DNA from: a virus
Taxonomy: Duplodnaviria > Heunggongvirae > Uroviricota > Caudoviricetes
Reading direction: 5' to 3' (one strand)
DNA length: 11,722 nt
IMG/VR virus record: IMGVR_UViG_2671180606_000004
Location: 1-11,722 of that record
The position numbers and the translations under genes were made by a program. Under the pieces are notes generated by a model. It made no database searches. It was not told the DNA's origin and saw only the letters and a program-made list of their open reading frames with translations. Positions 1 through 11,722 of the stretch are shown in pieces; the first letter of the stretch is position 1; the number at the start of each line of letters is the position of its first letter.

Positions 1-94
1 TTACCTGATTTTCCAGAGTGCTGATCCGGGTGTCTGCTGTTGCCAGATTTTGACGTAGCGTTGTGTTTTCCTCTTCCAGCGCGGTAAGCGGATT
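1..94 (-). other. ORF fragment in a different frame from V (…[31 protein letters not shown]…), open from the V junction and running off the window start; coiled-coil-like; probably part of a distal gene joined to V by deletion
   Basis: Minus-strand frame opens after a stop at 95-97 and has no stop before position 1; heptad-like, protein-like composition; lambda V homology ends at about 88. Identity unknown. Confidence 0.35.
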
Positions 95-420
95 TTATAG
101 GCACGGGTATCACCTTCATTAAACCACGCCAGCAGCGCCTGCTGCCCCTGCTCTCCGGGCATCCACGCCAGCGTGAAGCTGGTATCTCCGGCAGATTTCT
201 GCCCCTGCCCGGTCGCAGTCCAGTCTGCATCTTCATCATCGAGATAGCTGTCGTCATAGGACTCAGCGGTCAGTTCGCCGGGCGTCAGGTCTTTAACTTT
301 TGCCAGACGCGACCAGTCAACGTCTGAAAGCGGGTTCGCATAAGGGTCACCGCTCCCCTTATAAACCCACAGGGTGGTCCCGGCACCTTTCACCGGCATT
401 ACAGGATTTGGTACAGGCAT
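1..420 (-). pseudogene. V: Phage lambda major tail protein V, N-terminal ~111 aa only; C-terminal half replaced by unrelated sequence (junction about position 88), reading to a stop at 1-3
   Basis: Translation from ATG 420-418 ([36 protein letters not shown]…[11 protein letters not shown]) matches lambda gpV N-terminus as recalled; after AYKIR it diverges ([12 protein letters not shown]…). Lambda gpV is about 246 aa. The track ORF begins at an upstream alternative start (450). Confidence 0.85.
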
Positions 421-427
421 AGCGTCC

Positions 428-823
428 TCACATTTCATAGGTAATGACATAAGTCAGATCGGCTGAACTCCACAGGCCCGCATCATCGTCGCGCCGGTAG
501 TCATAGCCACTGGCCACCATACTGGTGATCAAATCTGACAGTGCCGGGATATCGCTCATCACCGGATAAATCCGGGACTCCATCCACGAATCCAGCTCTG
601 AATCCGGCACCTGAGCAGGCAGGAAAACTTCAATATGCAGCTCCGCCTGCCAGGTATCGCTGTCCAGCTCTTCGCCCGTGTATTCAGCGCCGGTGAGATA
701 AACGGCAATTGCCGGAAAATCTTCCTCATCAAAAACAGCGGGGCGACCATCAAAAAGCGTCGCCCCGGTGTCATGCTTCTCCAGTGCATCCAGTACGGCT
801 GCACGGAGTTCAGTATGTTTCAT
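428..823 (-). CDS. U: Tail terminator protein U (lambda gpU), 131 aa
   Basis: Full-length near-identity to lambda gpU as recalled ([22 protein letters not shown]…LTYVITYEM); ATGA stop-start overlap with Z as in lambda. Confidence 0.95.
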
Positions 824-1398
824 CGCTTTATTACCATTCTCAGTTGATGCTGCAGCGCATAGCCCAGCTCTTTCGGAAGACGTTCACGCCGTATCCGTTC
901 AATATTCTGTTTAAACGCCGTGGTCAGCGGCACCGCCATCGGGATTTTCACCACATCAATGGGGTAACGGTTTTTCCCGGCCACACGCTGCATGACATGC
1001 CAGCGGCCATTTTTCAGTTGCTGAATAAACGCGCCGGGAATACGACGGTTACCCACCACAAGCACGCTGCCGCCATCTTTCAGGGCTGAACGCTGCCCCT
1101 TTTTACGACGCCTGCGTCGGGACAGGACAACCCGCGCGTTACCCAGCTTGATTACGGGCAAATCCCCCCGGTTAACCTTGATTCTGGCCTGTGGATTTTT
1201 GACCGTGGCCCTTTTCAGCCTGGCCCTTTCCTTTACCAGTTTCCGGCGTACCTTTGTCTCACGGGCAACCTGTGCCACCGACTGCGATATCGCGGATGAA
1301 GCAACGCGGTTAATGGCCATTGCGGCGGCACCGGGCACCGCCGTTCTGCTGATACGGCTGAGGTTTTCAACGGCCTGCTCAAGACCTTTTATGGCCAT
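820..1398 (-). CDS. Z: Tail completion protein Z (lambda gpZ), 192 aa
   Basis: Full-length near-identity to lambda gpZ as recalled (MAIKGLEQAVENLSRIS…HQLRMVIKR); GGGGGA Shine-Dalgarno upstream of ATG. Confidence 0.95.
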   Translation of the reverse strand: MAIKGLEQAVENLSRISRTAVPGAAAMAINRVASSAISQSVAQVARETKVRRKLVKERARLKRATVKNPQARIKVNRGDLPVIKLGNARVVLSRRRRRKKGQRSALKDGGSVLVVGNRRIPGAFIQQLKNGRWHVMQRVAGKNRYPIDVVKIPMAVPLTTAFKQNIERIRRERLPKELGYALQHQLRMVIKR

Positions 1399-1409
1399 AC
1401 ATCCCCCTT

Positions 1410-1763
1410 TCAGCGGCGACGGTTAACGGCAGGCGGTACGCCCCGCCCAAGCCAGAGATGACAGCTTCCGCCATCATCCGGCGAAATCCGGTCTATCCAG
1501 AAGTTTTCCTCACCGATGCTCAGCGTGTCGCCGCGCCGCAGCTGCCGCACATCATCAGTCCGGACAAACAGGGACGGGCTGGAGCCTTCAACGCGCACGC
1601 CCTGTCCGGCATAGCTGATATTTTCAGGGTCATCAAAAACACCACGTATTACTGCGCCGGACTGCTCACCGGATGTAATGGTGGCTGACGTTCCCATGTA
1701 CCCGCGTATCGTTTCATCGGCGCGGGCAATGGCGGCATCGAACAGGTTATCGAAATCAGCCAC
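1410..1763 (-). CDS. FII: Head-tail joining protein FII (lambda gpFII), 117 aa, GTG start
   Basis: Near-identity to lambda gpFII as recalled (MADFDNLFDAAIARADETIRGYMG…GRGVPPAVNRRR); GTG start with GGGAGG Shine-Dalgarno, as in lambda. Confidence 0.95.
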   Translation of the reverse strand: MADFDNLFDAAIARADETIRGYMGTSATITSGEQSGAVIRGVFDDPENISYAGQGVRVEGSSPSLFVRTDDVRQLRRGDTLSIGEENFWIDRISPDDGGSCHLWLGRGVPPAVNRRR

Positions 1764-1774
1764 AGCGCCTCCCG

Positions 1775-2170
1775 TTATTGCATTCTGGCCTGGCCGCGCT
1801 CTGTCATTTCGGCTGCCACACCGGCAGAGACACGAAACGCCGTTCCCGGCAGCACAAATGCCACAGCCTCATCCCGCGTGGCGTGAAGTGCATCAGTATG
1901 CAGCGTCACCAGTGCCACAACCGTGACCAGAGCAGCCGTATCAGTCACGGTATCCGTCTGTGCTGATACCACCTCATTTTCATGTCCGGTCAGTGCATTT
2001 TCCGGGCTGACAGACGTGTCCTGACCGGCTGCGTCATCCGTGTCATCAAGCTCCTCTTCCAGCTCTGCCACACGGAGCGCCAGTTCTTCTTTCGTCCCCG
2101 TCAGGCTGACATCACGGTTCAGTTGCTCACCCAGCGACCGGAGACGGGCAATCAGTTCATCTTTCGTCAT
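1775..2170 (-). CDS. FI: Head DNA-packaging/stabilisation protein FI (lambda gpFI)
   Basis: From ATG 2170-2168 (GGAGGAG Shine-Dalgarno upstream) the translation MTKDELIARLRSLGEQLNRDVSLTGTKEELALRVAEL… matches lambda gpFI as recalled; the track ORF starts at an upstream GTG (2209). Confidence 0.9.
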   Translation of the reverse strand: MTKDELIARLRSLGEQLNRDVSLTGTKEELALRVAELEEELDDTDDAAGQDTSVSPENALTGHENEVVSAQTDTVTDTAALVTVVALVTLHTDALHATRDEAVAFVLPGTAFRVSAGVAAEMTERGQARMQ

Positions 2171-2211
2171 GAACTCCTCCACAGAGAGAAAATGGCCCCG
2201 AAGGGCCACGA

Positions 2212-2748
2212 TTACGCCAGTTGTACGGAAACGAACTCATCAGGGTCAGCCAGCAGCATCAGCGGTGCTGACTGAATCATGGTGAACTCACGCGCCGGAT
2301 CGCCGGTGGTCACCCAGTTTTTCGGGTAACGGGCAGAGGCGTTAATGCCTTCGCGCTGTGCGTCCGCATCCTGAATGCAGCCATAGGTGCGCAGACCGCG
2401 AGCCTGAGTGTTCCCCAGCACCATCGTGTTGTCCGGCAGGAAGTTCTTTTTGACGCCGTTTTCCACGTACTGTCCGGAATACACGACGATGGCCACATCG
2501 CCATACATTCCCTTACCCTGGCGACGCGCCTTACGCGTTAACCAGCCTTCTGCTTCCAGCCGTGCGATAGCCGTTCTGACGGTACTCATCCCCGCGCCAA
2601 TCTGGCGGGCAATGGTTTCAATTGATGGCCAGCACACACCTTCGTCATTACTGAAATCAGCCAGGCGGGCCATAATTGCCACGCTGGATAATTTCATGCC
2701 TGACGCAGCGCAACCATCCCATACATAGCCGGTTAATTTAGTGCTCAT
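2212..2748 (-). CDS. Chimeric ORF: N-terminal ~78 aa winged-helix/HTH domain (HTH_36-like, as in phage replication-initiator proteins) fused in frame to the C-terminal ~100 aa of lambda major capsid protein E (E-derived part about 2212..2511)
   Basis: Residues from about 81 (MYGDVAIVVYSGQYVENGVKKNFLPDNTMVLGNTQARGLRTYGCIQDADAQREGINASARYPKNWVTTGDPAREFTMIQSAPLMLLADPDEFVSVQLA) match the lambda gpE C-terminus as recalled. Residues 1-78 (…SSVAIMARLADFSNDEGVCWPSIETIARQIGAGMSTVRTAIARLEAEGWLTRKARRQ) resemble the N-terminal DNA-binding domain of phage replication initiators. Lambda gpE is 341 aa, so its N-terminal ~240 aa are missing. Confidence 0.8.
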   Translation of the reverse strand: MSTKLTGYVWDGCAASGMKLSSVAIMARLADFSNDEGVCWPSIETIARQIGAGMSTVRTAIARLEAEGWLTRKARRQGKGMYGDVAIVVYSGQYVENGVKKNFLPDNTMVLGNTQARGLRTYGCIQDADAQREGINASARYPKNWVTTGDPAREFTMIQSAPLMLLADPDEFVSVQLA

Positions 2749-2757
2749 GACCGACCT

Positions 2758-3096
2758 CTATTTCCCTGAATTTACGACGAAACTGTTCGAGCGGGCTGAA
2801 GCACTCATGCTCATAGCCCTCGCGGAGGTAGATAACCCGTTGTGTTTCCGGCTCCCAACGAATGACTCTGACGGGCACTCCGTAGTGATCTTTGAACCAG
2901 CGGTTAACTTGTCGCAAAGGACTGTCTCCTTCTGCCGGTTGAAATCACCCACAGCCCACTCTGCAAAGCTGTGGGTTACAATTTCCCTGTCACCTGGTAC
3001 ATTCACTGCATAGCAATATTCCACCTTCGCTTTTCCACCCGGTACAGGAAGCGCAATCAGTTGCGAGCGACGGTAGTGTGTTGTTAAACTGTTCAT
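2758..3096 (-). CDS. Hypothetical early-operon protein; possibly frame-disrupted (C-terminal part may continue in the -1 frame to a stop at 2738-2740)
   Basis: ATG at 3096 overlaps the stop of the upstream cII-like gene (ATGA coupling). The N-terminal 50 aa look protein-like; the annotated frame ends in low-complexity sequence ([16 protein letters not shown]), while the -1 frame from about 2944 reads a convincing peptide (…[61 protein letters not shown]) whose stop overlaps the ATG of the next gene. Confidence 0.45.
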
Positions 3097-3701
3097 GCGT
3101 TAGTTTCTCCACAGTCACGACACGCCACGGCGCCCGGAGCTGCACACTCGCGGGCGTCATTACTTTCTGAAATGCAAAAAATTTTGTAGACCAGTGCTGC
3201 ATGCTCCTGCAGCTTCGAAATTGAGAGGTAGAGCTCGTCATTAATTGCTGTCTTCTCATGCGGTTCCACTACACCGTCTTCGATTGCTGAACGAATCTGT
3301 TTTGAATAACTGCCGATCTGTTCAATGACTTCCAGCAGACGCTGGTTAATATCGGCGTTGTCCACATCCTCGACGTCAGGAAGAGACACAAAGACGCCAT
3401 TTGCAGACTGCGCCACAGCATCAGCAATGAAGTGAGTTCCACCAGCACGTTGCAAAATCATTGCCCATCCCAGCGGGAAAATCTGATCGCCATCGGCACG
3501 AAGGCGGTTAAATAATGCGTTCTCTGTTACATCCAGCCAGTCAGCAGCTTCAGCGTAACCCCCCGGCAACGCTGCGATAGTTTTTCTGACAGCTTTCACG
3601 TACCACTCAGGCTGTTTTTCTACTTTCCAGTGATGCTTACCCACGGTTAGCCTCATCGTTCTGTGGTTTCTGTTAATCGATTTATCCATTAGATTTTTCA
3701 T
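3093..3701 (-). CDS. Early regulatory protein in the cII position (CII/CP76-like or YdaT-like; family uncertain), about 202 aa
   Basis: ORF immediately downstream of the cro-like gene in the same operon. Start set at ATG 3701 (or 3689) rather than the track start 3758, which would overlap cro by 77 nt. Family assignment is by position and loose resemblance only. Confidence 0.55.
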
Positions 3702-3882
3702 AAAGCTCAGGTTTAAATGGCAACCGTCCGCAAGTTCTATATGCAGCTTCTGCTGCACGTCCTTTTGGAATTAACTGGCCCGGACGGTTTCGCCACTGAT
3801 AAACGGCTTCAGTTGTTATGCCGAAAAAAGCAGCAACTTTCTCAATACTGCCGAAGTAGCTTTCGATATCGTCAGTTGTCAT
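3682..3882 (-). CDS. Cro-like small HTH repressor (Cro/YdaS-type), 66 aa
   Basis: Small ORF divergent from the CI-like repressor; motif …[45 protein letters not shown] typical of Cro/YdaS-family proteins; GGAGGG Shine-Dalgarno upstream. Confidence 0.8.
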   Translation of the reverse strand: MTTDDIESYFGSIEKVAAFFGITTEAVYQWRNRPGQLIPKGRAAEAAYRTCGRLPFKPELYEKSNG

Positions 3883-3979
3883 ACGCCCTCCAAACTAAGT
3901 TTTATTAGATGCTAATTACAAATCTATCTTTGGTCAATAAAAACTAAGATTACTTAGTAATTAAAGAAATGGTGCTCCT
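3883..3979. promoter_or_regulatory. Divergent cI/cro intergenic control region: palindromic operator candidate ACTAAG-ATTA-CTTAGT (3943..3958), inverted repeat ATTAG-N3-CTAAT (3904..3916), two AACTAAG copies, candidate cro promoter on minus strand (-35 TTGACC 3932..3937, -10 TAGCAT 3909..3914)
   Basis: 97-bp AT-rich spacer between divergent repressor genes; perfect 6-4-6 palindrome; sigma70-like hexamers with 17-bp spacing read on the minus strand. Promoter assignment is by eye. Confidence 0.5.
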
Positions 3980-4606
3980 ATGGAAACGGTTGGTCAGCGT
4001 ATAAAAGCTCTGAGAAGAGTTACCAGAACGTCCCAGAAAGAATTGGGTAAATTTTGTGGAGTAAGCGACGTTGCTGTGGGGTACTGGGAGAAAGACATCA
4101 ATACCCCTGGTGGGGAGGCACTTTCGAAATTAGCGAAGTTCTTCAATACGTCAATAGATTACATTCTTTATGGTGCTGAGTTTGAAGGCAAACTCGTCAC
4201 AAACATGCGCAGAGTTCCTGTAATATCGTGGGTTCAGGCTGGGCAGTTTACTGAGTGCAGGGCAGCAGAAGTGTTTAGTGAAGTGGACAAGTGGGTAGAT
4301 ACATCATTAAAGATTGGTGATAACTCATTTGCATTAGAGGTTAAAGGTGACTCCATGACTAACCCTAATGGCCTCCCAACAATACCAGAAGGCGCAACAG
4401 TGATTGTAGATCCAGATGCAGAACCTCGTCATGGAAAAATAGTCATCGCTCGACTTGATGGAACAAACGAAGCTACAGTAAAAAAATTAGTCATCGATGG
4501 CCCTCAAAAGTTTTTAGTGCCATTAAATCCTCGGTATCCCAACATCCCTATCAATGGTAATTGCCTTATCATTGGTGTAGTCAAAGGAGTTCAATACGAA
4601 CTCTAA
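3980..4606 (+). CDS. CI-like prophage repressor: N-terminal XRE-type HTH plus C-terminal S24 (LexA/CI-type) autopeptidase domain, 208 aa
   Basis: HTH motif (QKELGKFCGVSDVAVGYWEKD…), catalytic Ser in GDSM and Lys in KKL with spacing typical of S24 peptidases; divergent from the cro-like gene. Confidence 0.9.
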   Translation: METVGQRIKALRRVTRTSQKELGKFCGVSDVAVGYWEKDINTPGGEALSKLAKFFNTSIDYILYGAEFEGKLVTNMRRVPVISWVQAGQFTECRAAEVFSEVDKWVDTSLKIGDNSFALEVKGDSMTNPNGLPTIPEGATVIVDPDAEPRHGKIVIARLDGTNEATVKKLVIDGPQKFLVPLNPRYPNIPINGNCLIIGVVKGVQYEL

Positions 4607-4690
4607 GACCTCTCTTCTCTAACTAAGGCACCGAACTAAGAAAAGTTTGGTGTTTTCTCTTGCCATAATAACTAAGTTAAGTTAGATTTT
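4607..4690 (+). promoter_or_regulatory. Candidate pL-like promoter/operator region downstream of the repressor gene: three direct AACTAAG repeats (4621, 4634, 4670) and possible -35 TTGCCA (4660..4665) / -10 TAGATT (4683..4688)
   Basis: Same heptamer as in the cI/cro spacer; hexamers with 17-bp spacing on the plus strand, pointing away from cI. By-eye call. Confidence 0.3.
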
Positions 4691-4812
4691 ATGTCAAAGA
4701 TAACGAACAGGCAGGACGCCCACGAAGTAGCCGCCTGGGGCATATGAAGTCCAGGATGATTCGTTGAGTCATGTTGTGCCACTAGGCACTCATGTTAAAG
4801 CAGGTGTATGAA

Positions 4813-5088
4813 ATGAAAGTCCAGATTTTAAACAATAACTGTGAAGTCGTTTGGTCATACGACATAGCCGCCCATGTAGATCAGAGCGGCGATAGCTGGG
4901 CCAATGGGAAACATCAGATTATGGCTGGAGTTGTATTCTCTTTACGCCGTGCTTTAGAACAGGCTGAAGTCTTTCCATCAGACCCTGAATGGAAATGGCC
5001 TTTTTCTATTTGTCCAAATTCGGAGAGTACATTTCAGAAAATTGGTCAGAAAGTCGCACTCGAAGAGCATCAGCCAACTGTTTCCTGA
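4813..5088 (+). CDS. Hypothetical protein, 91 aa (first ORF downstream of the repressor, N position of a lambdoid map; no N-like Arg-rich motif)
   Basis: ORF with AGGTG Shine-Dalgarno 7 nt upstream of ATG 4813 (track start 4792 lacks one). Its 3' end is overlapped by an equally plausible antisense frame (5006..5263, minus), so the call is uncertain. Confidence 0.4.
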   Translation: MKVQILNNNCEVVWSYDIAAHVDQSGDSWANGKHQIMAGVVFSLRRALEQAEVFPSDPEWKWPFSICPNSESTFQKIGQKVALEEHQPTVS

Positions 5089-5504
5089 TTTTTTCAGGTA
5101 ACTCGTCGGCATCGCAGAAACAACAACGCTCGATCATGTTGAAAGCCGATTCGTAGAACTGTTTTTGCTGAGTGTCGCTGAGACAGGAAAAGAGCGACGT
5201 TACGATGATTTTATTAATTGCATTATCAAGTTCTTTTTCATCAAAAGTTATTTGATTTTCCTTTTATGTATACGGGCTTAAAAGGATACCACCGAGCCTG
5301 AAGTGGTGAAAAGACAGGCACATAACAGCTAAGTATTTTCAACCAGAGAGAATCCTTAGCGTTGTGGTGAATGCGGCTCAGCGCACGCGGGTTAAGGTTG
5401 AGGCTGACAGTCGACCTTCTGTGGATACCCACCCGCCTGGTGTGCAACCTTCGCCAGGCACCGGGAGGCACCCGGCACCACAACTTTATGCTGTGTGTAG
5501 TCCT

Positions 5505-5552
5505 GGCGGTACCAGTTTGTACACTTGCTTCCGGCTGGTACCGCTCTTTTTA
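5505..5552 (+). terminator. Rho-independent terminator candidate: perfect 10-bp stem GCGGTACCAG/CTGGTACCGC, 19-nt loop, followed by TCTTTTTA
   Basis: Base pairing checked position by position (5506-5515 with 5535-5544); U-tract immediately 3' on the plus strand. Lies in an ORF-poor spacer upstream of the yfdP-like gene. Confidence 0.5.
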
Positions 5553-5688
5553 CAAAACAGAGAAGAGCATCACCGGACGACGGGCTCATAACCCAATCCA
5601 TCCGGGCGGCTGCCACCGCAGGTGTTCTTCTCTGTTTTGTGGAGAAACTAATCGGCCTTGCAGGGTCGATATGATGAGGAGCAACAAA

Positions 5689-6051
5689 ATGGCTAGCGAA
5701 CGCAGTACTGATGTGCAGGCATTTATCGGGGAGCTGGACGGCGGCGTATTTGAAACAAAAATCGGCGCAGTTCTCAGTGAAGTCGCTTCCGGTGTGATGA
5801 ACACGAAAACCAAAGGTAAGGTCTCACTCAACCTGGAAATCGAACCATTTGATGAGAACCGTGTGAAAATCAAACACAAACTCTCATATGTTCGCCCGAC
5901 TAACCGCGGGAAAATTTCCGAAGAAGACACCACCGAAACGCCGATGTATGTCAATCGCGGTGGTCGCCTGACTATTCTGCAGGAAGACCAGGGACAATTA
6001 CTGACTCTTGCCGGTGAACCTGACGGAAAACTCCGCGCAGCAGGTCATTAA
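5689..6051 (+). CDS. yfdP: YfdP-like hypothetical prophage protein, 120 aa
   Basis: ATG 5689 with GAGGAG Shine-Dalgarno 8 nt upstream; size and position match the yfdP-yfdQ-yfdR-yfdS block of CPS-53 as recalled. The track ORF start at 5371 is an upstream read-through of non-coding-looking sequence. Confidence 0.75.
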   Translation: MASERSTDVQAFIGELDGGVFETKIGAVLSEVASGVMNTKTKGKVSLNLEIEPFDENRVKIKHKLSYVRPTNRGKISEEDTTETPMYVNRGGRLTILQEDQGQLLTLAGEPDGKLRAAGH

Positions 6052-6116
6052 TATCGTTCTTAATTAACTGATTATTTATTTCATCACTGAATATCTTTAT
6101 ATAGTGAGGACTTATT

Positions 6117-6941
6117 ATGTCTCAGAACTTAGACGCAACCGCAATTAATCAAATCCATGCCCTTATTTCTGCTCAGGGTGTTAATGAAATTATCAGTAAG
6201 ATTGGTGCCGATGCTGTGGCATTGCCTGAGAATTTCCGCATTCATGATCTGGAAAAATTTAATTTAAATCGCTTCCGTTTCCGTGGTGCGCTTTCCACTG
6301 CCAGCATCGATGACTTTACCCGTTATTCTAAAGATCTTGCAGATGAAGGCACCCGCTGCTTTATCGATGCTGATAATATGCGTGCCGTCAGTGTGCTTAA
6401 CCTGGGTACTATTGATGAACCAGGTCACGCAGATAACACCGCCACTCTCAAACTGAAAAAGACAGCACCGTTCTCTGCTCTGTTGTCTGTTAATGGCGAG
6501 CGTAACTCCCAGAAATCACTGGCAGAATGGATTGAAGACTGGGCTGACTACCTTGTGGGCTTTGATGCTAATGGTGACACCATTCAGGCAACAAAAGCGG
6601 CTGCGGCGGTCCGTAAAATCACGATTGAAGCAAACCAGACCGCTGATTTTGAAGATAATGACTTCAGCGGCAAACGCTCCCTGATGGAGTCTGTCGAAGC
6701 GAAGACCAAAGACATTATGCCAGTGGCATTTGAATTTAAATGCATTCCGTTTGAAGGTCTGAAAGAACGTCCGTTTAAATTACGCCTCAGCATTATCACT
6801 GGCGATCGTCCGGTACTGGTTCTGCGCATTATTCAGCTGGAGGCGGTGCAGGAAGAAATGGCTAACGAATTTCGTGATCTGCTTGTTGAGAAATTCAAGG
6901 ACAGCAAAGTAGAAACCTTTATTGGTACTTTCACCGCCTGA
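6117..6941 (+). CDS. yfdQ: YfdQ-like hypothetical prophage protein (DUF2303-type), 274 aa
   Basis: Well-formed ORF with GAGGA Shine-Dalgarno; length and neighbourhood match K-12 YfdQ as recalled. Confidence 0.8.
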
Positions 6942-6953
6942 TTTCATTACTGC

Positions 6954-6981
6954 AAATGCCCCTGCGGGGGCATTTATGGAA
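6954..6981 (+). terminator. Hairpin AAATGCCCC-TGCG-GGGGCATTT (perfect 9-bp stem, 4-nt loop) downstream of the yfdQ-like gene; possible terminator or attenuator
   Basis: Perfect inverted repeat 6954-6962 / 6967-6975 with GC-rich core; only a short U-tract follows. Confidence 0.4.
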
Positions 6982-7068
6982 ACGTAATTGACTCAATAAT
7001 CGCCGGGTGGTGGGGGCTTCCTTTTACCAGAATTCAGCGCGGTGCAGCGCATATACGTGGAGAACAAA

Positions 7069-7605
7069 ATGTCATTTATTAAAACTTTTTCCGGGAAGCA
7101 TTTTTATTATGACAGGATAAATAAAGACGACATCGTTATTAACGATATCGCGGTTTCCCTTTCAAATATCTGCCGCTTTGCAGGACACCTTTCACACTTC
7201 TACAGCGTCGCCCAACATGCGGTGCTTTGCAGCATGCTGGTACCGCAGGAATTTGCTTTTGAAGCATTAATGCATGATGCAACAGAAGCGTATTGCCAGG
7301 ACATCCCCGCACCACTGAAACGCCTCCTTCCTGACTATAAACGGATGGAAGAAAAAATAGACGCCGTAATCCGTGAGAAATACGGGTTACCTCAGGCTAT
7401 GAGCACGCCCGTGAAATATGCCGATCTCATCATGCTGGCAACCGAACGCCGCGATCTCGGGCTTGATGATGGCTCTTTCTGGCCTGTACTGGAAGGTATC
7501 CCGGCAACAGAGATGTTCAACGTGATTCCACTGGCACCGGGCCATGCCTATGGGATGTTTATGGAACGCTTCAACGAGTTATCGGAGTTACACAAATACG
7601 CATAA
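7069..7605 (+). CDS. yfdR: HD-domain phosphohydrolase (YfdR-like, 5'-deoxynucleotidase-type), 178 aa
   Basis: H…HD…D motif (AQHAVLCS…LMHDATEAYCQDIP…); start at ATG 7069 (MSFIKTFSGKHFYYD…) with GGAG Shine-Dalgarno, rather than track start 7042; size matches K-12 YfdR as recalled. Confidence 0.85.
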   Translation: MSFIKTFSGKHFYYDRINKDDIVINDIAVSLSNICRFAGHLSHFYSVAQHAVLCSMLVPQEFAFEALMHDATEAYCQDIPAPLKRLLPDYKRMEEKIDAVIREKYGLPQAMSTPVKYADLIMLATERRDLGLDDGSFWPVLEGIPATEMFNVIPLAPGHAYGMFMERFNELSELHKYA

Positions 7606-7616
7606 ATGTTTTCGAA

Positions 7617-7957
7617 ATGGAAGGGTTTCTTCGCGGGAAATGTGTACCGCGAGATCTGAAAGTGAATGAAACAGATGCTGAATACCTGGTACGTAAATTC
7701 GATGCGCTTGAAGCTAAATGTGCAGCACTGGAAAAAAAGTAATACCAGTGTCAGCTGAACTGCCGCCAGCAAATGAAAGTGTTCTGTTATTTGATGCTAA
7801 TGGAGAAGGCTGGCTGATTGGCTGGCGTTCTCTCTGGTACACATGGGGGCAAAAAGAAACCGGAGAATGGCAGTGGACATTCCAGGTCGGGGACCTTGAA
7901 AACGTCAATATCACTCACTGGGCAGTAATGCCGAAAGCACCGGAGACTAAGAAATGA
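7617..7957 (+). pseudogene. yfdS: YfdS-like gene split into two frames at an A7 tract: 7617..7742 (41 aa, stop TAA) and the -1 frame continuing to 7957; frameshift mutation, homopolymer sequencing error or programmed -1 frameshift
   Basis: Upstream frame MEGFLRGKCVPRDLKVNETDAEYLVRKFDALEAKCAALEKK ends at TAA directly after the heptamer A AAA AAG (7733..7739); the -1 frame continues VIPVSAELPPANESVLLFDANGEGWLIGW… to 7957. Combined length about 114 aa (K-12 YfdS is 120 aa as recalled). Confidence 0.6.
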
Positions 7958-8169
7958 GCGTGATAAAAACTCATACAGGAATTGTTATCACGCAAGACGG
8001 TGACAAGCGGATGAAATTACATTCTACTGAAATGTCCTGGGTTGCCGGACGTTGTGAATCCTACGACAAAAAGACTGGTTACCATTGGGGGGCGCCAAAC
8101 ATGCGTCGCCGTCTGCTCCTGGACAGAATCAGGCCAATTAAACAGGTAGCAACCAGAGAGCAAAATTAA
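7954..8169 (+). CDS. Small hypothetical prophage protein, 71 aa (yfdT position)
   Basis: ATGA stop-start overlap with the preceding gene; GGAG Shine-Dalgarno 8 nt upstream. Confidence 0.6.
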   Translation: MSVIKTHTGIVITQDGDKRMKLHSTEMSWVAGRCESYDKKTGYHWGAPNMRRRLLLDRIRPIKQVATREQN

Positions 8170-8231
8170 TTATCAGGACTGGAATTTGATATTACTGCCC
8201 GTGTGCAGCGGGCTAAGTGGAGAAAAGACTC

Positions 8232-8456
8232 ATGAGCAACCGCTTCCTGACTGATGAAGAACTGATAGAGGCGACAGGGTCTTCCCAAAAGTCACTACAG
8301 AAAGAAGTCTTAACGCAGAATGGCATTTTTTTTATTGAACGCAGGGACGGTTCTGTAAAAACGACCTGGTTTCATATAAATCATCCCATTCATCGTTTGG
8401 CTCCACCAGCAGGTTTCTCGCCCACTCCGGGTATGAACTTTGATGCTATAGAGTGA
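8232..8456 (+). CDS. Putative excisionase / recombination directionality factor (small protein directly upstream of int), 74 aa
   Basis: ATG 8232 with GGAG Shine-Dalgarno (track start 8217 is GTG); stop 5 nt before int. Function inferred from position, size and N-terminal motif MSNRFLTDEELIEATG…; not similar to lambda Xis. Confidence 0.55.
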   Translation: MSNRFLTDEELIEATGSSQKSLQKEVLTQNGIFFIERRDGSVKTTWFHINHPIHRLAPPAGFSPTPGMNFDAIE

Positions 8457-8460
8457 AATT

Positions 8461-9447
8461 ATGGGTCGAAAACGAGCACCTGGTAATGAATGGATGCCGA
8501 AGGGGGTATATTTCCGCCCTTCTGGCTACTACTGGAAACCAGGGGGAACAACAGAAAAAATTGCATCAGCCAATGCAACAAAAGCAGATGTCTGGGTTGC
8601 TTTTGAAAAAATTGTAGAGGGGAGAAAAAGACGAATAACTTTTGCCCAGCTTTGGAAGAAATTTCTCAATAGTGCCGATTATGCAGATTTGGCACCACGA
8701 ACTCAAAAGGATTATCTAGCCCACGAAAAATATCTCCTTGCTGTTTTTGGCGAAGCGGAAGCAAAGACTATTAGACCAGAACATGTAAGGCGGTATATGG
8801 ATGCCAGAGGAAAGAAAAGTCGTGTCCAAGCTAACCATGAGCACAGTTCAATGTCTCGGGTATTTCGTTGGGGATACCAACGAGGATATGTTCCTGGAAA
8901 TCCTTGCGTTGGAGTAGATAAATTCCCTAAACCAAAGCGTGATCGCTACATCACAGATGAGGAATACATGGCGATTTATGAACACGCCAGTGAGCCAGTT
9001 AAAGCCGCAATGGAAATAGCTTATTTATGTGCAGCGAGGGTATCCGATGTCTTGAAAATGGACTGGCCGCAGATAATGGATAAAGGAATTTTTATTCAGC
9101 AGGGCAAGACGGGAGTTAAGCAGATCAAGGCGTGGACTGATCGCCTGCGCGCGGCAGTTGATATTTGCAGATCGTGGGGGGAAACAGGGTCAGTAATTAA
9201 AACCATGTATGGAGAGCGTTACTCTTACAAGGGGTTTAATGAGGCATGGCGAAAAGCAAGAACAGCGGCAGCCAACTATCTTGGAAGACCTCTGGATTGT
9301 ACATTTCATGATCTGAAAGCTAAAGGAATTTCTGACTATGAAGGATCATCAAAAGAAAAGCAGCTATTTAGTGGGCACAAAACTGAATCACAAGTCATGG
9401 TTTATGATAGAAAAATACGCATCACACCAACATTAAATAAAAATTAG
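8461..9447 (+). CDS. int: Tyrosine site-specific integrase, lambda Int family, 328 aa
   Basis: Aligns with lambda Int as recalled: N-terminal MGRKR…GYYW arm-binding region, catalytic-domain landmarks AARVSDV (Arg-I), QGKTGVK (Lys), TFHDLK (box II His), GHK, VMVYDR (Tyr nucleophile). Confidence 0.95.
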   Translation: MGRKRAPGNEWMPKGVYFRPSGYYWKPGGTTEKIASANATKADVWVAFEKIVEGRKRRITFAQLWKKFLNSADYADLAPRTQKDYLAHEKYLLAVFGEAEAKTIRPEHVRRYMDARGKKSRVQANHEHSSMSRVFRWGYQRGYVPGNPCVGVDKFPKPKRDRYITDEEYMAIYEHASEPVKAAMEIAYLCAARVSDVLKMDWPQIMDKGIFIQQGKTGVKQIKAWTDRLRAAVDICRSWGETGSVIKTMYGERYSYKGFNEAWRKARTAAANYLGRPLDCTFHDLKAKGISDYEGSSKEKQLFSGHKTESQVMVYDRKIRITPTLNKN

Positions 9448-9451
9448 ACTC

Positions 9452-9473
9452 TAAGTGCGCGTTAGCGCACTTA
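9452..9473. terminator. Perfect inverted repeat TAAGTGCGC-GTTA-GCGCACTTA between convergent int and the AT-rich operon; candidate bidirectional terminator
   Basis: 9-bp perfect stem with 4-nt loop in the 23-bp gap between convergent stops; the stop codon of the 265-aa gene lies in the 3' arm; T-rich flank on the plus side. Confidence 0.4.
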
Positions 9474-10268
9474 TTCAAATAGTTCAGGGAATACTAATTG
9501 TAGTGAATTCATGAATTTATCAATATCTTCAGGAGGTTCTTGCTCACGAAACCACTTGTCACACACTTCATTGACATAAATTTTCGCTTGTCCGACCTTC
9601 AAGGATTTATTCTCTCGTCCACTTTTATCAGCAGGGTTATAGTGCAAACTTAAAATAAAATTTCTAACCTTTACTTCTTTTCCCTTTTTTGAAACTATAT
9701 TGTAGTCAAAATAACATTCATCACCGGTAAACGCATTTGCTATGGGGCTCTTTTTAAAATGATATCGGCACTCATCAAGCCTATCAGAAATAGCCTTATA
9801 TTTTTCAAAATCACCAGAGCTAAGGTAGCTGAACCAATTTTTAAAGTAACTTAATGAATCAAGTTTCTGATGGTAAATAAAGAAACCTGCATGTTTCTCA
9901 TCAGAAATATATCTTGTTACTAACTGTAACATGCCTTCAAAGACACCATTATACGAATTCCCTCTTTTTGCTTCAGCGAGCCAAGTAAAGCTCTGATCAC
10001 GATCCTGAACTGTAATATCGACGGAACCATTAGATTTTGTTTGTTCAGATGCGTTGTACCCAACACCTTTGAGAAATAAAACCAGTAAATTAGTGATCTT
10101 ATCTTCATCATCTGAATAATATTTATCCGCAGTCTTCTCAATATGCTTAATTGCATTATTTATATCGGCATATAGACTTTGTACAAACACATCCTCATCG
10201 AATGGCTTCAAGTTTACCAGCGCGGCTAATTCGGCAGGTGTTATATTTTGAAGAAAATTATTTGACAT
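9471..10268 (-). CDS. Hypothetical protein, 265 aa, third gene of the AT-rich operon; possible PD-(D/E)xK nuclease-like core (…GSVDITVQD…FTWLAEAKRG…)
   Basis: Long ORF in a visibly AT-rich segment; ATG overlaps the stop of the upstream gene by 11 nt. The D…E-x-K spacing is the only motif recognised and is an inference. Confidence 0.7.
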   Translation of the reverse strand: MSNNFLQNITPAELAALVNLKPFDEDVFVQSLYADINNAIKHIEKTADKYYSDDEDKITNLLVLFLKGVGYNASEQTKSNGSVDITVQDRDQSFTWLAEAKRGNSYNGVFEGMLQLVTRYISDEKHAGFFIYHQKLDSLSYFKNWFSYLSSGDFEKYKAISDRLDECRYHFKKSPIANAFTGDECYFDYNIVSKKGKEVKVRNFILSLHYNPADKSGRENKSLKVGQAKIYVNEVCDKWFREQEPPEDIDKFMNSLQLVFPELFE

Positions 10269-10689
10269 TTAATATACAGTAAAAAGAAATGTTATTAACA
10301 TCGAAATCATCTATTTCGCGCCCAGACAATAAACTGATCGGAGAAATATCACAAATCAGAGCATTATAGTAGCATTCTGCTGAAATAGGGATTTCTTCAC
10401 CATCAAAATCATAATAGCAATAAGTTATATTAAATAATTTAGAATGTGCACCACAAAAATAACGGACTAACTTTAGCAAATCCGAGTCCGATTCACAGCC
10501 TGCCGCTTGCCTTAATACATTAATCGGGTAATAATTTTTATCATAATTATTTTGAATGAAATCCAAAACATTATTGAATAGAAAGATATCTTCTTCAGGA
10601 AAGATATCTTTCATTTCATCCAATAATATCCTTTGTTCAGACAAAAGCATCATTATGACCTTGATTCTATCATTTTCGTGAGATGACAT
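10258..10689 (-). CDS. Hypothetical protein, about 143 aa, middle gene of the AT-rich operon
   Basis: ORF overlapping both neighbours (about 20 nt upstream, 11 nt downstream), suggesting translational coupling; start taken at ATG 10689 (track start 10695 is TTG). No family recognised. Confidence 0.65.
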   Translation of the reverse strand: MSSHENDRIKVIMMLLSEQRILLDEMKDIFPEEDIFLFNNVLDFIQNNYDKNYYPINVLRQAAGCESDSDLLKLVRYFCGAHSKLFNITYCYYDFDGEEIPISAECYYNALICDISPISLLSGREIDDFDVNNISFYCILNVK

Positions 10690-11722
10690 TTTCAATTAAA
10701 CCATTTAATGAGATTGTATCTTCAGGAAAATCAACATAAAATTCGCCACAAAAATTATCATCCAACCAAGATTTCTTATTTGGATCTAGACCCAATTCTG
10801 TAAAGTCACCATTATTTCTGTAAAATCTTACGGCTACAGCACGTGGTGTATAAATATCATTTCTTTTCTTATTAGTAATCTCGACATCTCGAGCTTCATA
10901 TGTCGGATCTTTGCGGCCAATGACATTAGCATCACAACCTGTATTAGAACCAACATAAATTATCTGAACTGCTTTCCCGAACGATCTATCAGTAATAATG
11001 CTATTGATCACATTATAAAAATTCAATTGTTTGAAATGAATAGTATTATTAGTACTGATGAGCATATCAAAAAATTTATTACGCACCGATGCAAGCGCTT
11101 TTGCTGTCTCCCGTTTCCCTAAATTTTTTGGAAGACGATACTCGATCCTATTTTTATTATGGGGAACAAATACTGTTATAAATTGTTGCTGTGGGGTATA
11201 CGATAGTCCTAAACCGCGACTTCCCTTAATCTTAACACTATAAACATATGAGAAAATAAAAGCAAAGCCATCGCCAGTATCAATTAATTTAGTCAGATAA
11301 AGACCTTTGATATTGTTCCCAAGTGAATTACCATCATATAACTTTCTTGGATAAGAATTTTCATACCTTGAATCAGTTACACTTGTACTAAAAACATGTT
11401 GGATCACACTTTGGAAATTTGGGTCTTGTGTTTCGTCAATAGAATAATAGTGACTACCAGAGATTATTATTCTATCGATCATTTTCTCAAGTGAATTTAA
11501 TGTAGCATTAGGAAATGCAGCTGTTGGATTCTGTATAGATGCCTCGATTGCCTTCAAAACCGCATCCATTCCACCTTTAACAGGTGGAAATCCATACACA
11601 GTTGCTATCTGAGAAATAAATGAATATAGATTGGTCTGCTCAAGCGCAGTAATCAAATCAGATAATACTTGTTGACTATTGTTGGCAACAACAGGCGTAG
11701 CAAATGCGCTAGATGAATTCAT
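10670..11722 (-). CDS. Hypothetical protein, at least 350 aa, first gene of the AT-rich operon; the ATG coincides with the last 3 nt of the window, so the true start and promoter may lie beyond the window
   Basis: Uninterrupted 350-codon frame in an AT-rich segment; no Walker or other catalytic motif recognised by eye. Confidence 0.7.
   Translation of the reverse strand: MNSSSAFATPVVANNSQQVLSDLITALEQTNLYSFISQIATVYGFPPVKGGMDAVLKAIEASIQNPTAAFPNATLNSLEKMIDRIIISGSHYYSIDETQDPNFQSVIQHVFSTSVTDSRYENSYPRKLYDGNSLGNNIKGLYLTKLIDTGDGFAFIFSYVYSVKIKGSRGLGLSYTPQQQFITVFVPHNKNRIEYRLPKNLGKRETAKALASVRNKFFDMLISTNNTIHFKQLNFYNVINSIITDRSFGKAVQIIYVGSNTGCDANVIGRKDPTYEARDVEITNKKRNDIYTPRAVAVRFYRNNGDFTELGLDPNKKSWLDDNFCGEFYVDFPEDTISLNGLIENVISRK

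Follow-up and report, generated by a model that had tools for sequence, protein, structure and literature searches.

Genes and Features of the Locus

The window analyzed here is a stretch of 11,722 nucleotides (positions 1 to 11,722 of the virus record IMGVR_UViG_2671180606_000004) that represents a cryptic, e14-like prophage of Escherichia coli. The same neighboring genes are found in it as in e14 of E. coli K-12, namely a ymfK-like repressor gene, a cro-like gene at the position of ymfT, ymfL, and a remnant of a replication gene. In the identical locus of ETEC1730, the ymfK-like repressor belongs to the LexA/S24 family. The genes described below are encoded on the minus strand.

The cII-like gene ymfL (Phage_CP76) is located at positions 3093..3758, and its true start is probably internal, because PGAP calls a protein of 183 aa. 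The ymfL stop codon overlaps the ATG of ymfM (ATGA), a gene encoding 112 aa and extending over 2758..3096, from the ATG at 3096-3094 to the TAG at 2760-2758; its reading frame is referred to here as frame A. The −1 frame relative to it (frame B) contains a second gene, belonging to the DUF4222 family, which occupies 2738..2917, starts with the TTG at 2917-2915, ends with the TAA at 2740-2738, and encodes 59 aa. The two genes share a dual-coding stretch of 160 nt (2758..2917), in which the tail of ymfM lies over DUF4222. The part of ymfM preceding this stretch (2918..3096) encodes an N-domain of about 60 aa, ending in FAEWAVGDF, which is constrained in frame A. Inside the coding sequence of the N-domain, an mRNA hairpin is found at 2947..2976, 30 nt upstream of the internal start of DUF4222, with its 3′ end 15 nt ahead of the DUF4222 Shine-Dalgarno sequence.

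The replication-gene remnant follows at 2212..2748. It consists of an HTH_36 N-terminus joined to the C-terminus of a major capsid protein E (Pfam HTH_36 at residues 23-70, Phage_cap_E at residues 76-176), and the joint between them is a prophage deletion joint. At the junction between ymfM and this gene (2746..2760), the ymfM TAG (2760-2758), the GAGG Shine-Dalgarno sequence (2758-2755), and the replication-gene ATG (2748-2746) are packed together, while the frame-B TAA at 2740-2738 lies inside ATGAGCACTAA, downstream of that ATG.

On the plus strand, an oop-like antisense sRNA, known as ECS003 in K-12 (PMC3175480, Additional file 4), covers 3061..3165 together with its putative promoter (TTGCGA at 3061-3066 and TAAACT at 3085-3090). 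The RNA begins at 3094, and a GC hairpin with a U-rich tail, seen both in the sequence and in a fold check, ends near 3165.

The ymfM Reading Frame

In the initial annotation, ymfM was described as a gene with a frame break, and all the features listed there were located on the minus strand where they had been placed. The protein read from frame A and K-12 YmfM (b1148, annotated as “cell division inhibitor YmfM”) disagree in only 3 of their 112 residues, and their genes lie in syntenic surroundings, so that frame A is the orthologue of b1148. Frame A matches PHROG 1170, and the N-domain alone is covered by a 63-aa profile, PHROG 20047.

The N-domain is 61-78% identical across diverged homologs, and AlphaFold assigns a pLDDT of 66-76 to YmfM residues 10-66. 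Among 55 distinct e14-like sequences, the variable sites within ymfM codons 1-59 are distributed 12:1:0 over frame-A positions 3:1:2. The tail, comprising about 53 codons, is Ser/Thr-rich, predicted to be disordered (pLDDT 33-40), and only 26-51% identical between lineages, with the second codon positions of frame A being its most variable sites. No amino-acid-level constraint on the tail was detected in codon positions, tail identity, or pLDDT, so that the data lend no support to a functional peptide in the tail. The description of the annotated frame as good for about 50 codons and degenerate thereafter is borne out quantitatively by the codon-position counts, which change from 12:1:0 to 22:7:2 (the latter counted in frame B), by the Pfam match of the −1 frame peptide, and by the low confidence of the predicted tail structure. 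The pattern greatly exceeds what chance would produce. Matches of homologs to the whole annotated frame had been named as evidence that would speak against such a change. These matches do occur, but they do not refute it, since the DNA of the tail is conserved for frame B.

DUF4222, a Gene in the Second Frame

The −1 frame is interrupted by a TGA (2947-2945); from 2944 onward it stays open until the TAA at 2740-2738. The peptide encoded there, regarded from the outset as the more convincing one, matches Pfam DUF4222 (PF13973) with 64.7 bits against a gathering cut-off of 27 bits (E = 5.5e-18, model positions 6-52 of 53), and PGAP annotates exactly this CDS as “DUF4222 domain-containing protein” (WP_001250269.1). 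Similar to other members of the family, it is full-length and of the same size, and it lies between cII-like and replication genes, as in other lambdoid phages. DUF4222 homologs are standalone proteins of 59-70 aa.

The Shine-Dalgarno sequence AAGGAG (2926..2931, minus strand) is located 8 nt ahead of the TTG start, and both elements are present in 84 of 84 e14-like loci. Every relative has an ATG, GTG, or TTG at the aligned start position, and a GGAG or GGAGG-like motif is found at the equivalent position in all lineages. Additionally, 31 of 59 lineages carry a frame-B stop one codon ahead of the DUF4222 start; DUF4222 is therefore no extension of an upstream frame.

Beyond ymfM codon 59, the variable sites of the 55 e14-like sequences are distributed 22:7:2 over frame-B positions 3:1:2. 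By these counts, the DUF4222 start marks the point at which constraint passes from frame A to frame B, and purifying selection acts on frame B within the overlap. Across lineages, DUF4222 proteins are 40-78% identical and share a conserved motif set. The protein is predicted to adopt an SH3/Tudor-like beta-barrel (AlphaFold pLDDT 84), and a fold search returned generic SH3/Tudor/KOW barrels only, none of them pointing to a function. Taken on its sequence features, DUF4222 appears to be a real, independent gene with its own start. The initial annotation had offered a chance alternative ORF as one of two simple explanations; this fails because frame B encodes a protein of a Pfam family, and both its start codon and its Shine-Dalgarno sequence are conserved.

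Layout among Relatives

At least 1,932 E. coli genomes have the two-frame layout, which extends to relatives at about 40% DUF4222 identity, encompassing dozens of diverged loci, hairpin included. This diversity was obtained from contigs encoding the proteins and from a DUF4222-based viral scan; the N-domain run against genome contigs gave 7 loci only, and a first viral scan gave near-identical loci only. The ymfM/DUF4222 overlap is conserved across many enterobacterial phages.

Several relatives are organized differently. Morganella phages carry the two genes side by side without overlap (ATGA junction), and the +1 frame relative to DUF4222, which corresponds to frame A, contains 4-5 stops. 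The overlap is likewise absent from phages phiNP and EKP1, which have stops in the +1 frame. In Hafnia phage yong2, the +1 ORF over DUF4222 starts from its own ATG, and in Providencia phage PSTCR8lys it has an ATGA start. In Yersinia phage YeP2, the N-domain ORF is interrupted by stops and the +1 frame is still open, without an obvious start; a similar layout is seen in L133.

The Hairpin Upstream of DUF4222

As had been pointed out, the change of frame lies just 3′ of a 9-bp hairpin: the stem spans 2976-2968/2955-2947, and the −1 frame is open from 2944. The stem is formed by ACCCACAGC (2976-2968) pairing with GCTGTGGGT (2955-2947) around a 12-nt loop. The MFE fold of positions 2900-3000 contains this hairpin, with two additional G-U pairs bringing its stem to 11 (dG -33.9, z = -2.2).

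In an ungapped alignment of 25 lineages, the hairpin pair 10-33 is UA in 14, CG in 10, UG in 1, and unpaired in 0, and pairs 13-30 and 14-29 show changes on both sides too. The compensatory change takes the form of Tyr TAC/Val GTA versus His CAC/Val GTG. The covariation score is 0.276, whereas shuffles give 0.147, with none of 500 attaining the observed value, and slid controls give 0.123 at most. The hairpin sits in a conserved protein motif, and the number of independent switches inferable for the covarying pair is only about two. The hairpin is conserved through compensatory changes.

A search of positions 2500-3900 with Rfam covariance models gave no match up to E = 1. An intrinsic terminator on either strand was considered for the hairpin and rejected, as it is not followed by a T-run in any of the lineages and a promoter/terminator scan was blank there. 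A second small hairpin in the window pairs the Shine-Dalgarno sequence with the TTG; it shows no visible conservation in other lineages.

Frame A Is Kept Open across DUF4222

Over DUF4222, frame A contains 0-1 stops, versus 3-10 in the +2 frame (about 50 distinct loci), and it is stop-free in all overlapped lineages, about 19 in number. Under synonymous resampling, the probability that frame A would be open is 0.05-0.14 per lineage. The codons in use reflect this openness: valine ahead of a codon starting with A is encoded by GTT in 22 cases and GTC in 18, and by GTG or GTA in 0 of 40, while T and C interchange freely at the at-risk sites of DUF4222. At these sites, codons ending in A or G would create a frame-A stop, and they are avoided, being used at 3 of 99 at-risk sites versus 21 of 69 other sites of these genes (Fisher 6e-7; this test, like the shuffle statistics, treats lineages as independent, and the lineages share ancestry). 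Fourfold sites differ at 0.51-0.66 between lineages, and synonymous sites are therefore nearly independent between them (near saturation).

Selection thus acts to exclude stops from frame A over the length of DUF4222, and stop avoidance is the only selection detected on frame A in the overlap. Furthermore, the frame-A stop and the start of the replication gene are at most about 10 nt apart in each of the overlapped lineages that were checked; here the stop lies 9 nt ahead of the ATG. In e14-type loci, its position hinges on a conserved rare ATA codon.

Two Overlapping Genes and a Possible Translational Relay

We propose that there is probably no frame break at this locus and that two real genes overlap in different reading frames, a reading to which we assign a probability of about 0.8 on the sequence data. 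In this arrangement, ymfM would consist of a functional, constrained N-domain of about 60 aa followed by an unconstrained, disordered tail of about 53 codons, and DUF4222 would initiate independently at the internal AAGGAG-N8-TTG.

The ending of frame A precisely at the start of the next gene suggests that ribosome transit matters. The selected feature of the tail may be translation through it rather than its sequence, to which we give even odds or slightly less. Ribosomes would pass from ymfL to ymfM via the ATGA junction, reach the start of the replication gene, and terminate on its Shine-Dalgarno sequence, so that translation would be relayed without a break all the way from the cII-like gene to the replication gene. 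The output of DUF4222 would be set separately and would probably be lower, owing to a weak TTG start inside translated mRNA, and the hairpin probably tunes this internal initiation or the spacing of ribosomes. The complete proposal, in which the passage of ribosomes is itself the function, with a relay via ymfM and a second protein from a hairpin-tuned internal start, is put forward tentatively, with the odds leaning somewhat against it. In lysogens, both genes are repressed. A literature search for an internal ORF in ymfM and for ribosome-profiling or proteomic data on the locus found nothing.

It is also conceivable, although unlikely, that reading through the overlap has no function, so that DUF4222 and the YmfM domain of about 60 aa are the sole meaningful products and the tail is accidental, being open by chance or inheritance. 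The unconstrained sequence and predicted disorder of the tail would fit such an origin, as would its absence from Morganella phages, and for any single lineage the probability of an open frame is not negligible. YeP2, which keeps the +1 frame open without a connected upstream ORF, hints at a cause other than read-through. Chance would have to account, though, for about 19 lineages with near-saturated synonymous sites that all shun stop-creating codons at the at-risk sites, for a frame-A stop that always adjoins the start of the next gene, and for the independent +1 ORFs of yong2 and PSTCR8lys.

An indel, the other simple explanation in the initial annotation, would mean that an ancestral single gene for the N-domain and DUF4222 was broken near 2935-2950. 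A few database proteins do carry both parts in one frame, but such fusions are rare and sporadic, and the five recorded (P0030, P0053, P0060, P0065, and P0090) have five different junctions, whereas the two-frame layout is the norm in the E. coli genomes and in all diverged relatives. Together with the conserved start and Shine-Dalgarno sequence of DUF4222, the frame-B stops just upstream of it, and the standalone proteins of its family, this makes a frameshift mutation very improbable.

Programmed −1 ribosomal frameshifting, which would yield an N-domain::DUF4222 fusion beside YmfM, was judged unlikely from the beginning, and our data strengthen that judgment to the point where we give the mechanism hardly any weight. 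The order of frames that it would need, 0 and then −1, is conserved, and both the AAGGAG site, which is Shine-Dalgarno-like, and the hairpin are nearby. Nevertheless, no X XXY YYZ heptamer exists in frame A from the last stop of frame B to the stop of frame A, either in the window or in most lineages; the only recurrent heptamer, A AAT TTA, is absent here and elsewhere lies at the far 3′ end, in Lys-Phe codons of DUF4222. The hairpin is upstream of the frame-B opening, and there is no stimulatory structure 5-9 nt downstream of a slip site. Moreover, the 0 frame continues well past the shift point, DUF4222 has a start of its own, and in the 31 of 59 lineages mentioned above frame B opens just one codon before that start.

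Finally, the notion that the 112-aa ymfM is the sole genuine gene and that frame B holds just a spurious ORF, which the K-12 reference annotation and the preference of Prodigal-type callers for the long ORF might encourage, can be dismissed as next to impossible, being contradicted by the codon-position data and disfavored by the Pfam match, the confident fold, and the conserved start codon of frame B.

Comparison with Known Systems and Significance

Genes that overlap out of frame are known from other phages, such as Rz/Rz1 of lambda, A/B/K/E of phiX174, and the MS2 lysis gene over coat and replicase, where likewise two proteins are obtained from one stretch of DNA. Common to these overprinted genes and to ymfM/DUF4222 are an embedded gene with an internal ribosome-binding site and the pairing of one constrained frame with a fast-evolving one. 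The embedded products Rz1, E, and L are well-defined functional proteins. Unlike in those systems, the weaker frame of ymfM/DUF4222 is selected only against stops and not for its sequence, and it ends exactly where the next gene starts.

The locus also resembles the cII-oop-O region of lambda, in which a cII-like gene is likewise followed by a replication gene. In both, a short, abundant antisense RNA (ECS003 in K-12) begins a short way beyond the 3′ end of the cII-like gene and runs back into that gene, where it ends. In lambda, by contrast, there is no gene pair between cII and O, whereas here the antisense promoter lies within the first ymfM codons.

In published work, ymfM has been identified as SfiC, a cell division inhibitor, and handled as one gene of 112 aa (Ansari et al., bioRxiv 10.1101/2020.11.19.390815). 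The pBAD24 ymfM clone contains DUF4222 codons 1-53 together with the DUF4222 Shine-Dalgarno sequence and TTG, and the ymfM deletions remove both genes. As the clones and deletions cover both ORFs, the FtsZ-ring block is assignable to full-length YmfM, to the 60-aa domain, or to DUF4222. The SOS-inducible SfiC inhibitor credited to YmfM may thus be DUF4222 itself, may require DUF4222, or may be the 60-aa N-domain only.

Current annotation captures half of this locus at a time: the K-12 reference lists ymfM only and PGAP lists DUF4222 only, so that neither shows both overlapping signals. Hundreds of prophages, as well as phages such as SfII, SfIV, SfV, and ST64B, are half-annotated in the same way. 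If the proposed relay is true, the locus would represent a clean natural case of selection acting on the transit of ribosomes and not on the peptide they produce, with frame A required only to lack stops and to end where the next gene starts.

Two overlapping genes in an e14-like prophage

Over the 551 bases around the locus, the window matches a prophage of E. coli ETEC1730 at 100% identity and the K-12 cryptic prophage e14 at 97%. Along the minus strand, the cII-like gene ymfL (Phage_CP76) is followed by the small ymfM/DUF4222 gene and by the replication gene, of which the HTH_36 N-terminus alone is left in the window. It is joined to the C-terminal part of major capsid protein E, forming a chimera (2212-2748, minus strand) of HTH_36 residues 23-70 and the last 100 residues of the capsid protein (Phage_cap_E model positions 228-328). 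The chimera marks a large deletion inside the prophage; its joint differs from that of K-12 e14, where the replication gene is fused to the terminase. Given its sequence identity and gene order, the window represents an e14-like prophage remnant.

The small gene is in fact two overlapping genes, accompanied by a conserved hairpin, and the second of them, DUF4222, has independent initiation signals. The first, ymfM (frame A), extends from the ATG at 3096, which overlaps the ymfL stop codon (ATGA), to the TAG at 2760-2758 on the minus strand. It encodes 112 aa, and a Pfam search with this annotated protein matched no family. The initial annotation had described a frame break here, and its coordinates for the locus, frames and hairpin all proved correct on re-reading the sequence: the -1 frame (frame B) is closed by a TGA at 2947-2945 and open from 2944 to a TAA at 2740-2738, within ATGAGCACTAA. 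The peptide of this frame matches Pfam DUF4222 (E = 5.5e-18, 64.7 bits, cut-off 27), a family of standalone proteins of 59-70 aa. PGAP annotates it as a 59-aa "DUF4222 domain-containing protein" (WP_001250269.1; window 2738-2917, TTG start). The PGAP records of ETEC1730 and MG1655 contain this CDS and lack ymfM, whereas the curated K-12 record NC_000913.3 contains ymfM alone (b1148, "cell division inhibitor YmfM"); each displays one half of the locus.

An AAGGAG motif stands 8 nt 5' of the TTG, and the two occur together in 84/84 e14-like loci. Among the other homologous loci compared (L-numbers), the aligned start codon is ATG in L006, L091, L092, L099 and the majority of viral contigs, and GTG in L094, L096, L098, L100 and L102; a GGAG-like motif stands ahead of it in every diverged relative. 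A frame-B stop lies one codon 5' of the DUF4222 start in 31 of 59 lineages. The MFE fold also contains a small hairpin (2914-2935, minus strand) in which the Shine-Dalgarno GGA pairs with UCC and the TTG with an upstream CAG, and its conservation was not visible in other lineages.

Constraint on the two frames

Homologs of the 112-aa ORF share a strongly conserved N-terminal domain of ~60 residues, followed by a fast-diverging Ser/Thr-rich tail; identity to diverged lineages is 61-78% in the N-domain, 40-78% in DUF4222 and 26-51% in the frame-A tail. Variable sites were tallied in 55 distinct e14-like sequences. In the first 179 nt they fall at frame-A position 3 (12 sites) and position 1 (one site); in the overlap they fall at frame-B positions 3, 1 and 2 in 22, 7 and 2 cases, frame-B position 3 being frame-A position 2. 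Constraint thus switches frame at the DUF4222 start, which bears out the earlier impression that the annotated frame degenerates after about 50 codons. In the AlphaFold model of the frame-A protein, pLDDT is 66-76 over residues 10-66 and drops to 33-40 over residues 68-112. The sequence of the tail appears to be irrelevant, and the tail may have a purely compositional role, as a disordered Ser/Thr-rich extension. The YmfM N-domain is also kept as ORFs of 75-78 aa in prophage remnants of Atlantibacter (L007), Entomohabitans (L008) and Salmonella (L101), in which internal deletions have taken away most or all of DUF4222, so the N-domain can be retained when its partner is lost.

A classical programmed -1 frameshift had been considered unlikely, and this judgment holds, since frame B opens 3' of the hairpin and DUF4222 carries a start of its own. 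A heptamer scan found no X XXY YYZ in frame A of the window. The formal slippery heptamer A AAT TTA occurs in frame A of the majority of type (ii) lineages among the viral loci L127-L185, as Lys-Phe codons of DUF4222 near the end of the overlap (+144 nt, counted from the DUF4222 start); the window has A AAT TCA there. The initial annotation had offered an indel or a chance ORF as the simpler explanations of the frame change: the change itself is real, but these explanations fail, as DUF4222 is a Pfam match with its own start and the two-frame layout recurs in no fewer than 1,932 E. coli genomes and in each diverged relative having both parts. Database proteins joining N-domain and DUF4222 in a single frame (P0030, P0053, P0060, P0065 and P0090) were considered as support for an indel or pseudogene and rejected; their five different junctions indicate sporadic mutations or assembly errors.

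Maintenance of open frame A

Frame A is stop-free over the ~53 DUF4222 codons in the window, K-12, L006, L091, L092, L094, L096, L098, L099, L100 and L102. Another ~50 distinct viral loci have 0-1 stops in the +1 frame (frame A as seen from DUF4222), any single stop being near the 3' end, and 3-10 stops in the +2 frame. By synonymous-codon resampling of DUF4222, the probability of a stop-free +1 frame is 0.05-0.14 per lineage, and the lineages are close to independent at synonymous sites because fourfold sites are near saturation (0.51-0.66 differing between representative lineages). Where a Val, Leu or Ile codon ending in A or G would create a frame-A TGA, TAA or TAG, T or C is used instead, and both are seen; ahead of codons beginning with A, Val is encoded by GTT 22 times, by GTC 18 times and by GTG or GTA in 0 cases. 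A/G endings occur in 3/99 at-risk codons versus 21/69 not at risk in the same genes (Fisher 6e-7, kinship of lineages ignored). In Morganella prophages, which have no overlap, the N-domain ORF (63 aa) ends in a TGA overlapping the DUF4222 ATG (ATGA), GTG-ATT and CTG-AAA occur in DUF4222, and 4-5 stops interrupt the +1 frame; the other lineages without overlap have 6 (phiNP) and 2 (EKP1).

The TAG that ends frame A in e14-type loci arises from a conserved rare ATA (Ile) codon and GAG of DUF4222. It is placed on the GAGG Shine-Dalgarno, at a distance of 9 nt from the replication-gene ATG, which follows in the same frame. L094 has TAG-CGC-ATG at this place; in L096, L098 and L102 the stop is a few nucleotides 3' of the ATG, and all viral loci have it at the corresponding place. 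These comparisons indicate that selection keeps frame A open and ending at the replication-gene start. Ribosomes coupled from ymfL to ymfM through ATGA would read frame A through DUF4222 and terminate on the Shine-Dalgarno of the replication gene, which would leave the translation chain from ymfL through ymfM to the replication gene unbroken. In Morganella phages, the chain would pass from the N-domain to DUF4222 and on to the replication gene via two ATGA junctions. This relay does not explain Yersinia phage YeP2 (L186, 992-1456), where an unannotated N-module ORF of ~52 aa is followed by two stops before DUF4222 and the +1 frame is still stop-free, without an obvious start codon.

The hairpin and the antisense RNA

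The hairpin (ACCCACAGC at 2976-2968 and GCTGTGGGT at 2955-2947, minus strand) is present in the MFE fold (z = -2.2), and 25 distinct lineages, aligned without gaps over 42 nt, retain its core stem. U-A occupies pair 10-33 in 14 of them, C-G in 10 and U-G in 1, with 0 unpaired; at the codon level, Tyr TAC goes with the rare Val codon GTA, and His CAC goes with GTG. For pair 13-30 the counts are CG 14, GU 5 and AU 3, and for pair 14-29 they are AU 12, GU 4 and GC 2. Covariation scores 0.276, against 0.147 for shuffles (0/500 reaching 0.276) and at most 0.123 for slid controls. The G-U pairs on the sense strand favor an mRNA structure. No T-run follows the hairpin on either strand, and it matches no Rfam family. 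As its 3' end lies 15 nt 5' of the DUF4222 Shine-Dalgarno, it may set internal initiation or ribosome spacing.

An oop-like antisense sRNA locus (3061-3165, plus strand) lies at the ymfM start, with a putative promoter (TTGCGA, 17-18 nt, TAAACT) followed by a GC hairpin and U-rich tail. Its K-12 counterpart, ECS003, measured 116 nt by sequencing and about 70 nt on northern blots, was the most abundant of the nine cis-antisense candidates for which the paper's Table 2 lists predicted sigma-70 promoters, and extends from the complement of the ymfM ATG, its 5' end, into the ymfL 3' end (PMC3175480). Read on the opposite strand, the -10 element gives the Asn-Ser-Leu codons. At least three diverged types of N-module are found: YmfM-N, MNSLNRFRPAKQFRCLPLVGK... 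and MNSLTVNNRLPQLRGIPV... (L099, L100 and viral loci L127-L185). All begin with MNSL, possibly because the -10 element overlies these codons. The types are swapped mosaically 5' of nearly identical DUF4222 genes, the relative frame at the joint being always the same.

Other architectures

SfV orf37 and ST64B sb41 both begin with MNSL, cross DUF4222 out of frame and continue into an Ash/Rha-type protein. In SfV (L103, 1352-2188), ST64B (L104, 1358-2515) and Hafnia phage yong2 (L188, 884-1567), the frame over DUF4222 continues for a further 170-330 codons, through a conserved segment (KAGAGIGV...MVGWAGASKDAP...AAIMATVP) and then a Rha/Ash-type domain, so that a long annotated gene encloses DUF4222 completely. 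This long ORF may encode one protein, or a separate Rha gene may begin at MATVP. In yong2, the +1 ORF leading into the "Ash family protein" has its own ATG, in TTGAATG, which holds the TTG of DUF4222 and the upstream TGA together with this ATG. In Providencia phage PSTCR8lys (L189, 880-1062), the N-module is in the other frame, and three ORFs meet within 10 nt: the DUF4222 ATG is at 880, the +1 ORF ATG at 887 and the N-module TGA at 888-890. The +1 ORF, 55 codons long, overlaps the N-module stop in an ATGA, and 4 nt separate its end from the replication gene.

Implications for the division inhibition attributed to YmfM

Ansari et al. expressed the ymfM "open reading frame" from pBAD24, which caused filamentation without Z rings, and also worked with a ymfM deletion (10.1101/2020.11.19.390815); an earlier library clone was ymfL(142-185)-ymfM-ymfN(1-92) (PMC3614548). 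The ymfM ORF clone holds the DUF4222 Shine-Dalgarno, TTG and codons 1-53, and published deletions take out both genes (10.1101/2020.11.19.390815; PMC11410268). As clones carry and deletions remove both, and no frame-specific mutant is reported, the division-inhibition phenotype could stem from either gene. Our literature search found no paper on the ymfM/DUF4222 overlap. Overlapping phage genes are of an ordinary kind; at the ymfM locus the overlap was previously unrecognized, its selection pattern is unusual, and it matters in practice for a named E. coli gene.
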